From a virus (Duplodnaviria; Heunggongvirae; Uroviricota; Caudoviricetes), in the IMG/VR virus record IMGVR_UViG_2778261464_000012, positions 1 to 14,815 of that record: a stretch of DNA of 14,815 bases. One strand, given 5' to 3'. The notes beneath the pieces are model-generated. The model was given only the letters and a program-made list of their open reading frames with translations, did no database searches and had not been told where the DNA came from. Both the position numbers and the translations under genes were made by a program. Every line of letters begins with the position of its first letter. Position 1 is the first letter of the stretch. Shown piece by piece: positions 6,689-8,668 of the stretch.

Positions 6689-8668
6689 TTAAGCCGCTAG
6701 TTTAACTACTAGGAATGCTTCTTCGTGTGCTACTGCGTGGTCAATATAAGCGAATGTACGTAGTACAATACCTTGTGAAGCACGTAGAGTAGTATCATCA
6801 CGATCTACAGTTAGGCCGCCCCATGAAGCAAGTACAACATTGGAGAAGTCACCAAAGATAATAGAACCTGCTTCTACTTGAGTACTCTCAATAACGCGTA
6901 CAGAGTCACATAGATATGCTTCGAAACGATAACCTTCAATCATGAATTTAGCTGCGGTGTTACCACTAACAATAGTACTACGTAGAATAGCTGCGGTAGT
7001 TGGGTGTACGATTGCTACTACTTCATCAATACGAACGTTTGCAGCAGCTAGTTTACCTAGAGCACCTTGTACATCTCCTTGGGTAATTGCAGCAGTTAGA
7101 GTTTCAACTGGAGCAGTGGTAACGATTTGACCTAGAATTTCTTTTTCTAGTTTTAGGCCAGCACCACGTACCATTGCATCCTGTACATAACGTTCTGCGG
7201 TATCAGCAGACTTAATTAGAGTACGGGTAATTGGCACAGAACCAGAGAAGGTTTTAGGCTTAAGTACTAGTTTTTCAAAGTTTGCATCAACTAGTGGGGA
7301 ATCAGCACCTTCATCGATGAAATCAAACATTGCAGTGAAATCAGAAGATAGTTTTGGTAGTACTAGATTACCTTCACCTTCCAGGCCAGAGAAAGTTTGA
7401 ATTGGTAGTTGTGCAAATACAGAGTTAGCACGTAGAACATCAATATAAGAATCTACATACACTTCTTTAACTAGAGCACCACCAGTAGCAGGAGCAGTAG
7501 AGGTTGTACGTAGTTGACTTACTGGTACTTCAACACGAGCACCTTCGAATGGTTTACCTTCGGCTGCTTGACGAATTAGACCATTAATTACGGATTTTTC
7601 CATTTTGTTTTCCTTAACGTTAGGAGTTTTGTTATTTGTATTTAGTGAACGTTTGAAATCAGTAATTGAAATTCCTTTTTCAATTGCTTCTGATACATCA
7701 ACATTCAGTACTGAACCAATAGATTCAAGTTCACGTTTGCGAGCTTGTTCTGCTTTCTCGGCTTCATCTTCCATATCTTCTGGATGATTTACTTTACCGT
7801 CTGCATCACTAAAATCACCTACAGCACGTGTATCTTCACTTTCTACTGGATCATTACTATTTAGTGTTTCAGGCTCTACGCCTTTGTTTTGAAGTTTAGC
7901 TAGCAGATCGGGACGCTTTGAAAGCATCTCTTCTAATTCACCATCACTTAATTCAATGTTAGCTACGCCGCCATTTTCATCATTATCTACTTTTAAAGTT
8001 TCTTTAATATCGTAGGATTCAATATCTAGGCGGGTTTCTTCCATTCCCTCTTGTTCTTCCATGAGTCTTTCCTCTTCACTGGTTTCATTACTACTATTTA
8101 GTGAATCGTCTTCATGGGCTGTATCAAGTTCATATTCAAAATTATCACTACGTCCGATACCTGAATTAATGTCAGCAGGTACAGAACATAGGCTAATTTC
8201 GCTTGGTTCCCAGCGAGTAACAACAATGTTATTACCTGCTTCAATGCGGTAATCGTAAATGTTATAGCCAACGCTAACATGTGATAGAATTCCCTCTTGA
8301 ATCATTGACCACATAGTATTACCAAGTCCTACGTTACTAATACGTAGGGTTGCACGGCATACGCGATCTGCACCAATAGTTGTAGATTCAACTACACCTA
8401 GTAATTTATCGCGATCATGATTAAAGAGTACTGCACCTTTATTATTAATGCGGGTGCGGTCTACAGAGGTTTCATCACATAGGAGGATTTCATAATATAG
8501 TTCACCTTCGAGTTCACGGCTAACTGGAGTTTCCGTAGCAAATGCTACTTCAATAGTACGGTTATCAACATTAATTGCTGTTACTGGTACTGTCTGTTCC
8601 CTCTTCTGGTTCTTTAGGTTCAATTCCATTTGTATTTCCCTGTGTGTTTGTTTCCTTTTCTTTTGCAA
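6689..8668 (-). CDS. Prohead protease - scaffold-like linker - HK97-fold major capsid protein, fused in one polypeptide
   Basis: The N-terminal part carries motifs of HK97-type prohead serine protease ([35 protein letters not shown]). Residues about 190-370 are highly acidic and likely coiled-coil ([18 protein letters not shown]..., [19 protein letters not shown]). The C-terminal about 280 aa resemble HK97-type capsid proteins (...[24 protein letters not shown]...). The start may be ATG at 8629 (AGGGAAA upstream) rather than 8668. Confidence 0.85.

Follow-up and report, generated by a model that had tools for sequence, protein, structure and literature searches.

A prophage head gene with protease, acidic spacer and HK97-fold capsid protein in one frame, and probably with nested internal translation starts

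In the window analyzed here (the whole 14,815-nt stretch of viral DNA, IMG/VR record IMGVR_UViG_2778261464_000012), a single frame encodes a prohead protease, followed by an acidic spacer and then an HK97-fold major capsid protein. This frame is a real fusion and not an artefact. Conserved Shine–Dalgarno sequences, each followed by an ATG, at two in-frame positions suggest that the gene is probably nested in the manner of lambda C/Nu3 and does not act as a polyprotein only. A self-processing fusion combined with nested internal starts is the overall explanation that we favor, with moderate confidence.

A preliminary description had placed the fusion at 6689–8668. The frame is indeed uninterrupted there, but on the minus strand; a plus-strand reading of 6689–8668 was rejected, as its translation contains many stops. 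Counted from TTG 8668, the first possible start in the list of open reading frames, the frame spans 659 codons. TTG 8668 was in turn rejected as the start because identical public proteins and homologs begin at ATG 8629: the identical E. coli protein (P0001, 646 aa) is found on 125 contigs, and homologs retain both the initiator Met and the N terminus in the alignment. The true start is thus almost certainly ATG 8629, giving a product of 646 aa, and the 39 in-frame nucleotides upstream are probably not translated within the fusion protein. Residues are numbered from ATG 8629; adding 13 converts them to the frame from TTG 8668 used previously. The gene and its parts are as follows.

6689–8629, minus strand: protease–spacer–capsid coding sequence, 646 codons from ATG 8629 to the stop codon at 6689–6691; product 70.7 kDa
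8630–8668, minus strand: in-frame stretch upstream of the start, TTG 8668 to ATG 8629, inside the portal gene
8571–8629, minus strand: overlap of portal and fusion genes, 59 nt, in different frames
8150–8608, minus strand: prohead serine protease domain of the Peptidase_S78/HK97 type, residues ~8–160
8417–8419 (His71), 8273–8275 (Ser119) and 8198–8200 (Glu144), minus strand: candidate catalytic residues
7766–8149, minus strand: acidic spacer, residues 161–288
8060–8074, minus strand: candidate internal start 1, GAGGA at 8070–8074, 7 nt ahead of the Met190 ATG at 8060–8062
7637–7765, minus strand: small helical module, residues 289–331, with helices at 289–308, 313–317 and 322–331
7601–7616, minus strand: candidate internal start 2, TAAGGA at 7611–7616, 7 nt ahead of the Met343 ATG at 7601–7603
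7508–7600, minus strand: short basic propeptide, residues 344–374, with the conserved helix S-V-I-N-G-L-I-R
6692–7507, minus strand: predicted mature HK97-fold major capsid protein, residues 375–646, 272 aa, 28.9 kDa

At its 5′ end, the fusion gene overlaps the 3′ end of a lambda-type portal gene (8571–10,112). The corresponding overlap is 47 to 65 nt in four relatives and 44 nt in VP882, and the annotated start in relatives has AAGGA/GGGA motifs upstream. As part of the same moderately confident overall judgment, we take the host element to be a lambda-like siphovirus prophage of Enterobacteriaceae and the gene to be its head-shell gene. The phage collection searched contained no near-identical DNA. 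Among complete E. coli genomes, overlap (at 99.9% identity) reached only 26%, in strain G3/10; there, the head genes have been lost to an IS3 element, and this locus is therefore uninformative on the fusion gene. The protein matches phrog_617 over its full length (positions 3–622 of 626, E = 1.7e-88). The layout is common, and the fusion is neither rare nor new: RefSeq already lists the protein as "phage major capsid protein", a further PHROG family, phrog_4523, is named "major head and protease protein", and similar genes have been published from Gifsy-2 and from Arthrobacter, Microbacterium, Gordonia, and Rhodococcus phages. The view that such a fusion is less commonly documented thus did not hold, and the fusion as first framed matters little.

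Domain searches, proposed in the preliminary description as a check, gave matches above the curated thresholds to both Peptidase_S78 (PF04586; 35.7 bits versus a cut-off of 21, E = 1.2e-8, residues 76–170 of the 659-aa frame) and Phage_capsid (PF05065; 57.7 bits versus 24.2, profile positions 1–279 of 280). A match to phrog_80, "head maturation protease", was also found (E = 6.2e-13), and fold comparison identified a herpesvirus-assemblin-like protease fold and, at residues ~375–646, the HK97 fold. The protease motifs quoted earlier are present as LFNH71DRD, SHVS119VGY (in which the second Ser, Ser119, is the invariant one), and E144-I-S146-L-C-S-V-P151-A152-D153. In a MAFFT alignment of 145 sequences drawn from separate 50%-identity clusters, His71, Ser119, and Glu144 are 100% conserved. 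His71 and Ser119 are probably the equivalents of HK97 gp4 His65 and Ser114. Searching PDB sequences with the protease domain, as a single sequence or as a profile, returned no match. Pfam, PHROG, fold comparison, and the invariant catalytic residues bear out the description of protease, acidic spacer, and HK97-fold capsid protein in one frame.

Within residues 161–288 of the spacer, 42 Asp and Glu stand against 10 Lys and Arg (pI 4.05). Its length and sequence differ between families; in the spacer columns of the 145-sequence alignment, the commonest residue averages 0.01 to 0.18 of sequences and gaps fill 49 to 98%. The AlphaFold model, which is of low confidence overall (mean pLDDT 54.9), has almost no secondary structure at residues 152–287 (pLDDT ~30) and confident helices only at 289–331 (pLDDT 65–72). 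The linker, which had been called acidic and helical, is thus acidic but predicted to be mostly disordered, with helices confined to the small module. This module carries the motif R-x-x-E...A-I-x-x-G-x-S-x-x-x-F-K/R, and its residues R297, E300, A315, I316, G319, S321, and F325 are invariant in an alignment of 46 sequences with identity down to 38% (alignment A2). We propose that it is a scaffold-like, capsid-proximal part. No significant similarity to a known scaffold or delta domain was detected, and homology of the spacer to the HK97 delta domain was rejected, the weak alignment (E = 0.094) not being significant.

The best match of the capsid domain, by both sequence and fold, is the protein of roseophage R4C (PDB 8GTA), its closest solved relative. 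Residues 332–374, ahead of the domain, have a pI of about 9.8, and alignment A2 shows no variation at I352, R353, and R374. We place a putative maturation cleavage at Arg374|Thr375 because this pair aligns with HK97 gp5 Lys103|Ser104 and because the deposited R4C chain begins nine residues past the equivalent Arg. With respect to the residues of the HK97 covalent chainmail (Lys/Asn/Glu), sequence alignments to HK97 end before Asn356. The R4C chain comprises residues 362–629, the last 268 of the 629 encoded, which by analogy indirectly supports removal of the N-terminal part. In the window, no decoration gene separates the capsid gene from the FII-like gene.

Of the 150 best representatives of 50%-identity clusters, 144 carry both domains. 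In IMG/VR, 68 of 80 loci retain the single frame; identical copies of the intact frame occur on 125 contigs, and hundreds of diverged genes keep it as well. The identical copies and the representatives establish that the fusion is not an artefact. That a sequencing error or frameshift had joined two genes, the outcome named in the preliminary description as its refutation, is hardly credible in the face of these counts and of a frame without a stop. What speaks for it is a pair of E. coli genomes (~73–74% DNA identity) in which an "HK97 family phage prohead protease" is annotated separately beside another CDS, a "phage major capsid family protein" in one genome and a "hypothetical protein" in the other. 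We rejected these split copies as a natural two-gene form, because the inspected locus (one of the two) lies in a decayed prophage in which portal and terminase genes, too, are broken up. It is likewise very improbable, if less so than an artefact, that the N-terminal domain is a dead protease fold acting only as an internal scaffold, with cleavage absent or carried out by a host enzyme. The modest E value and limited extent of the Pfam match would suit a dead fold, but His71, Ser119, and Glu144 are invariant across clusters more than 50% different from one another, and the N-terminal 361 residues are missing from the virion protein of R4C. A fusion gene with self-processing is, in our judgment, highly probable.

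An internal translation start for the capsid domain, which the preliminary description had suggested looking for, appears to exist. The product from Met190 would be a 457-aa, 49.5-kDa spacer–capsid protein. In a set of 64 non-redundant, diverse fusion genes, 37 of the 92 in-frame ATGs lying at most 50 codons past the protease domain (40%) are preceded by a Shine–Dalgarno match of at least 5 nt, versus a base rate of 6.7%. This enrichment of about 6-fold has a binomial probability of 6e-20, with p ranging from about 1e-17 to 1e-20 over the two reference sets used, namely the remaining in-frame ATGs of these genes and the other codons of this region. Such a post-protease ATG occurs in 36 of the 64 genes, including those of R4C, VP882, and DCP80. 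The window's own site has a match of only GAGGA/AGGA, and the site is missing in some subfamily members (L014, L017, and L018). Shine–Dalgarno-like motifs within genes can also serve as pause sites.

Initiation at Met343 would yield a 304-aa, 32.4-kDa capsid-protein precursor. Met343 is invariant in alignment A2, and (T)AAGGA lies 7 to 13 nt upstream of its ATG in 18 of 18 subfamily genes. The Lys codon in this motif is AAG in all 18, a synonymous position, and AAG makes up only 10 to 40% of Lys codons in those 14 of the genes for which codon use was tabulated. The site ties with that of TerS for the longest Shine–Dalgarno match among the gene starts of the window. Because a conserved Lys-Asp/Glu dipeptide is encoded at the AAGGA motif, selection on the protein could account for some of the motif's conservation, and the invariant Met343 could be structural rather than a start. 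Further, the scaffold-like part would be missing from a capsid-only product, which counts against the Met343 start. The more distant branch that includes R4C and VP882 has no start of this type. For the two sites together, we consider it fairly likely that at least one is used.

These sites also bear on the alternative that the 646-aa protein is the only product, each subunit bringing a protease and spacer that self-cleavage removes. The internal Shine–Dalgarno/ATG pairs would then be by-products of purine-rich acidic coding, relics of separate genes, or pause sites. One unbroken frame is kept everywhere, genome annotations and the literature treat the product as a single fusion protein, and the lack of the Met343 start in the R4C/VP882 branch means that this start is not essential to the architecture; all three agree with a pure polyprotein. 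A minority AAG codon at a synonymous position in every subfamily gene and the enrichment of Shine–Dalgarno sequences before post-protease ATGs are harder to reconcile with it, and relics would not last across lineages that are only 25 to 40% identical. We regard a pure polyprotein as possible but doubtful. Of the self-processing polyprotein put forward in the preliminary description, removal of the N-terminal part gains indirect support from the R4C chain, whereas the idea that the polyprotein is obligatory probably simplifies too much, given the apparent internal starts.

In the explanation that we favor, a self-processing fusion with nested starts, the full-length product would consist of the S78 protease, the acidic spacer, the helical scaffold-like module, and the HK97-fold capsid protein. 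The capsid domain would form the procapsid shell, so that everything N-terminal of it would point inward and the protease would be packaged through covalent attachment rather than a docking tail. After assembly, the protease would cut near Arg374|Thr375 and degrade itself and the spacer, and the final shell subunit would be ~29 kDa. The ribosome-binding sites at Met190 and Met343 would most likely add the spacer–capsid and capsid-only precursors, and all products, sharing one C terminus, would co-assemble with the protease on only a fraction of subunits. The use of the internal starts and the product ratios are inferred, as are the cleavage position and the inward topology. A T=7 shell contains about 415 capsid subunits and needs far fewer proteases; alternative initiation, suggested by the conservation of the internal ribosome-binding sites, would be an answer to this stoichiometry problem.

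A more specific reading, which we hold to be only slightly better than an even bet, is a three-tier nested gene, in which three in-frame starts on one mRNA region give protease–spacer–capsid, spacer–capsid, and capsid-only products and the shell is built mostly of the short forms, the protease being brought inside by a minority of full-length subunits. Such a gene would parallel retroviral Gag/Gag-Pol, but with anchoring through the C terminus and with alternative initiation, not frameshifting, setting the ratio. A start just past the protease would then be general in this large phage capsid gene family, a property that has so far gone unremarked. A search of the literature other than the Gifsy-2 paper found no report of internal starts in protease–capsid fusions and no ribosome profiling or proteomics of this family, the HFTV1 preprint discussed below being nearest. 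If internal initiation holds, annotators should record nested products in this family, targeting of the protease without a docking signal would be explained, and the ratio of start-site strengths would offer a simple handle for engineering cargo loading into HK97-fold shells.

Among known systems, the Dinoroseobacter siphophage vB_DshS-R4C shares the order TerL, small gene, portal, and a gene of ~630 codons. This gene (006, annotated "major capsid protein") has the same S78 and PF05065 architecture and likewise an ATG just past the protease domain, in R4C with a GGAGG motif. The R4C capsid is reported to have neither cross-links nor a decoration protein; the structure paper is silent on the protease part and on processing (PMC10276861, Nat Commun 2023), and a marine-phage proteomics paper makes no mention of processing of this gene product. 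The two proteins are about 30% identical overall and about 20% in structural alignments of the capsid domain. The R4C spacer is Pro/Ala-rich whereas that of the window is acidic, and only the window gene has a Met343-type start ahead of the capsid domain.

In the Salmonella phage Gifsy-2, the central stretch of the capsid gene is reportedly ~200 residues long, with a proposed scaffolding role; its protease is presumably ClpP-like rather than S78, and the phage presumably has a lambda gpD-like decoration protein. Papers that cite Effantin et al. 2010 (Virology 402:355) describe this "tripartite capsid gene" with the layout seen here. A "capsid and protease fusion" is also described for actinobacteriophages (Arthrobacter clusters AM/AU/AN, Microbacterium EE, Gordonia CW/DM, and Rhodococcus RRH1). 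These infect other hosts, have little or no sequence similarity to the window gene, and are set beside it by description only; there, the fusion is reported as a trait of very small genomes, unlike the lambda-like prophage of the window.

HK97 gp4 and gp5 belong to the same protease (PF04586) and capsid (PF05065) families but are two genes, and the HK97 protease is recruited non-covalently. The N-terminal extension of gp5 is removed after a basic residue, and a product started at Met190 would correspond directly to gp5. The spacer of the window gene is acidic and about twice the length of the HK97 delta domain. The lambda protease gpC belongs to a different family. The nested protease/scaffold genes lambda C/Nu3 and HSV-1 UL26/UL26.5 have been reviewed together with Haloferax virus HFTV1 gp17/gp17.5, whose nested start was shown by ribosome profiling (bioRxiv 10.64898/2026.09.13.751334). 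In all three, an internal in-frame start in the protease gene yields an abundant shorter protein with an identical C terminus, as we propose here from sequence conservation. In lambda, HSV-1, and HFTV1, the shell protein is encoded by a separate gene, whereas here the shared C terminus is the shell protein, so that the nested-gene logic of lambda and the herpesviruses would be widened to the shell protein itself.

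The protease and capsid domains lie in one uninterrupted minus-strand frame, listed at 6689..8668 and 659 codons long when counted from a TTG, the earliest possible start. The single ORF without internal stops of the preliminary description was thus borne out, though on the minus strand; a plus-strand reading of the same coordinates was ruled out, its translation being full of stops. Comparison of protein sequences places the true start almost certainly at the ATG at 8629 (646 aa; residues are numbered from this Met, which gives values 13 lower than in the frame counted from the TTG), because identical E. 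coli proteins begin there and homologues conserve this Met and the next residues. The identical public E. coli protein (P0001), present on 125 contigs, is annotated 'phage major capsid protein'.

The gene belongs to a lambda-like siphovirus prophage and lies in its packaging/head/tail-proximal module.

Genes of the module
12478-13059, minus strand: TerS
10650-12563, minus strand: gpA-type TerL
10097-10675, minus strand: head-tail joining protein
8571-10112, minus strand: lambda-family portal
6689-8629, minus strand: fusion gene
6390-6683, minus strand: FII-like connector
5951-6388, minus strand: 145-aa protein
Downstream of the 145-aa protein gene, minus strand: tail genes
4266-5948, minus strand: 560-aa tail-tube-like gene, with a tube-like N-domain (aa 3-138), then repeats and a tail-fibre-like C-terminus (phrog_9017)
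1444-4302, minus strand: 952-aa 'tail protein' (phrog_2871, E = 0), between both tube-like genes
920-1390, minus strand: plain tail-tube-like gene, 156 aa (phrog_158 / PF16461)
592-882, minus strand: tail assembly chaperone-like ORF (weak PF16459 match)
206-535, minus strand: 109-aa ORF without family match, next after the chaperone-like ORF

The window's genes include no separate gene for a protease, scaffold or decoration protein. The start of the fusion gene overlaps the portal 3′ end by 59 nt (8571-8629, minus strand) in a different frame. Four relatives (38-79% identical) have overlaps of 47-65 nt there, and in Vibrio phage VP882 the overlap is 44 nt. Translation of the full-length product may be held back by this conserved long overlap, which stands where an ATGA coupling would be usual.

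Two genes within 920-5948 (minus strand) are tail-tube-like (phrog_158 / PF16461). The 952-aa gene, in its maximal GTG-start frame, shares 37 nt with the 560-aa gene; at the equivalent place, relatives carry a 1,220-1,274-aa gene with a Peptidase_S74 match (weak in one of two). Such a layout is unusual for a lambda-like tail module. ORFs 592-882 and 206-535 could be a G/GT-type frameshift pair. Among phage records, no close relative of the window was found at the DNA level. E. coli G3/10 carries in ybhA a copy of the terminase end (99.9% identical) truncated by an IS3 element, which replaces everything between mid-TerL and a tail-tip fibre gene; the segment from the terminase to a DUF3800 gene (phrog_12991; 13304-14425, plus strand), which lies on the opposite strand directly upstream of TerS, is 99.9% identical there (locus L001). 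The G+C content of the window is ~38% (34-40% throughout), well under the ~50% typical of E. coli, yet the identical capsid gene is on 125 Enterobacteriaceae contigs. The module probably came from a lower-GC lineage.

The fusion is real and conserved. When 1.84 billion cluster representatives were searched exhaustively, 5,752 matched at E ≤ 0.001; both domains are in one protein in 144 of the best 150 (median 619 aa), and the remaining six are shorter (157-422 aa), with the protease part only. Both domains occupy one uninterrupted frame in 68 of 80 IMG/VR loci, and four loci are cut by contig ends. This retention of the frame excludes a sequencing error or frameshift that had actually separated the protease and capsid ORFs. 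The region is annotated as a protease CDS plus another CDS in two E. coli genomes; the one of these loci that was examined is in a prophage with portal and terminase genes also in pieces. In the other eight IMG/VR loci (L052, L062-L065, L069, L074, L077), the same S78 protease N-terminus (36-38% identity) is followed, in a ~630-codon frame, by a ~450-residue C-terminal part that this family's capsid profile does not recognize; the protease may be joined there to a capsid protein of another lineage.

A single 'major capsid protein' of ~600-670 codons is annotated in VP882, phiHAP-1, R4C, RcCronus, S-LBS1 and ep3, and likewise in Arya, Mica, Mano, phiRSP, DCP80 and others. The name 'HK97 family phage prohead protease/HK97 family phage major capsid protein' is given to a relative by one source. 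The architecture is therefore not new, since it is catalogued in PHROG (phrog_617; phrog_4523, 'major head and protease protein') and published for Gifsy-2 (a 'tripartite capsid gene', according to papers citing it), for Arthrobacter clusters AM/AU/AN and Rhodococcus RRH1 (PMC5513430), and for Microbacterium EE, Gordonia CW/DM and others ('protease-scaffold-capsid fusion'; PMC7302621). It cannot be called less commonly documented, and RefSeq already contains this exact protein.

Residues ~8-160 form the protease domain (AlphaFold pLDDT 70-82). It matches Pfam Peptidase_S78 above the curated threshold (35.7 bits versus 21), as had been proposed, and phrog_80 'head maturation protease'. The motifs LFNH71DRD, SHVS119VGY and E144-x-S-x-x-x-V-P-A-D are present, and His71, Ser119, Glu144, Gly78 and Arg160 are 100% conserved in an alignment of the query with 144 two-domain representatives from different 50%-identity clusters. 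In homologues P0062-P0113 (~78-85% identical overall), the spacer and capsid domain are near-identical to those of the window and the protease is clearly more diverged, a sequence pattern that suggests a recombination junction close to where protease and spacer meet (region 7700-8150, minus strand).

In the 145-sequence alignment, no part is less conserved or varies more in length than the spacer (residues 161-288). Of the acidic helical linker described earlier, the acidity stands (42 acidic versus 10 basic residues, pI 4.05) and the helicity does not, these residues being predicted without structure (pLDDT ~30). Three helices follow at residues 289-331 (pLDDT 65-72), with several positions invariant in the subfamily alignment (46 sequences); we take this module as the most scaffold-like element, its similarity to the HK97 delta domain being nonsignificant (E = 0.094). 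A short basic propeptide (residues 332-374) with a conserved helix (…S-V-I-N-G-L-I-R…) ends at Arg374, invariant in the same alignment.

Residues ~375-646 match the whole Pfam Phage_capsid profile (57.7 bits), and the expected capsid-like C-terminus has HK97-fold relatives. The best of these is the capsid protein of Dinoroseobacter siphophage R4C (8gta_A; phmmer 1.1e-14, profile 9.5e-69, Foldseek 6e-11), followed by HK97 gp5 and encapsulins. R4C gene 006 encodes 629 residues, and the virion-derived chain (PDB 8GTA) is exactly residues 362-629; the structure paper does not comment on the missing N-terminal residues. The HK97 maturation site, between Lys103 and Ser104, aligns with Arg374 and Thr375; a basic residue is frequent there in the broader family, and R4C has Arg-Ser nine residues ahead of the first deposited residue. 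We predict on these grounds a mature protein of 272 residues (28.9 kDa). By proxy of the R4C chain, which lacks residues 1-361, and of this alignment, the self-processing claimed earlier is likely.

The earlier suggestion to look for an internal start of the capsid domain yielded candidates at two places. Met343, before the capsid domain, is invariant in the subfamily alignment, which extends down to 38% identity and has a Finegoldia (Firmicutes) protein among its members. AAGGA or TAAGGA lies 7 to 13 nt upstream of its ATG in all 18 subfamily genes compared (the window, 13 IMG/VR loci and four bacterial contigs). The motif covers a Lys-Asp/Glu codon pair whose Lys codon is AAG in 18/18 genes; in the 14 of them with tabulated codon usage, AAG accounts for only 10-40% of Lys codons, and counting only ~10 independent lineages, the chance of such uniformity is ~1e-4 to 1e-6. 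Among the window's gene starts, the Met343 site ties TerS for the longest Shine–Dalgarno match (6 nt); the annotated start of the fusion gene has only GGGA. This Met is missing from more distant members such as R4C and VP882. The Met343-type subfamily reaches as far as Finegoldia.

Family-wide, in-frame ATGs at most 50 codons past the protease G-x-G-R motif were counted in 64 nonredundant fusion genes, scoring Shine–Dalgarno matches of at least 5 nt spaced 4 to 13 nt. Such matches precede 37 of 92 post-protease ATGs, against 6.7% for any codon of the region (binomial p 6e-20); elsewhere in these genes, 837 in-frame ATGs have them at a rate of 6.6% (Fisher's 7e-17). They occur in 36/64 genes, including R4C (GGAGG, 5 nt), VP882 (GAGGTG) and DCP80 (TAAGGA); the candidate in the window, Met190 (ATG 8062; GAGGA at 7 nt), is a weaker match. 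The suggested recombination junction coincides with this location. We hypothesize from sequence that both sites are internal starts; the literature searched, the Gifsy-2 paper aside, held no description of conserved internal starts in such fusions.

For topology, cleavage site, internal-start use and product ratios, we infer the following. The full-length protein would co-assemble through its capsid domain, bringing protease and spacer into the procapsid; most shell subunits would probably be short forms with the same C-terminus, initiated at Met190 and/or Met343; and the protease would then cut all forms near Arg374 and Thr375 and degrade the internal material. The main rival is a pure polyprotein, the reading of the preliminary description, to which we give about a third of our confidence: the anatomy and the likely self-processing agree with it, and its account of expression is probably incomplete, given the conserved internal Shine–Dalgarno motifs and ATGs.

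The scheme of full-length and internally initiated products would correspond to HK97 gp4 and gp5 with the intervening stop codon removed. Its regulatory logic would be that of lambda C/Nu3, HSV-1 UL26/UL26.5 and HFTV1 gp17/gp17.5; in contrast to those nested genes, the shared C-terminus here would be the shell protein.
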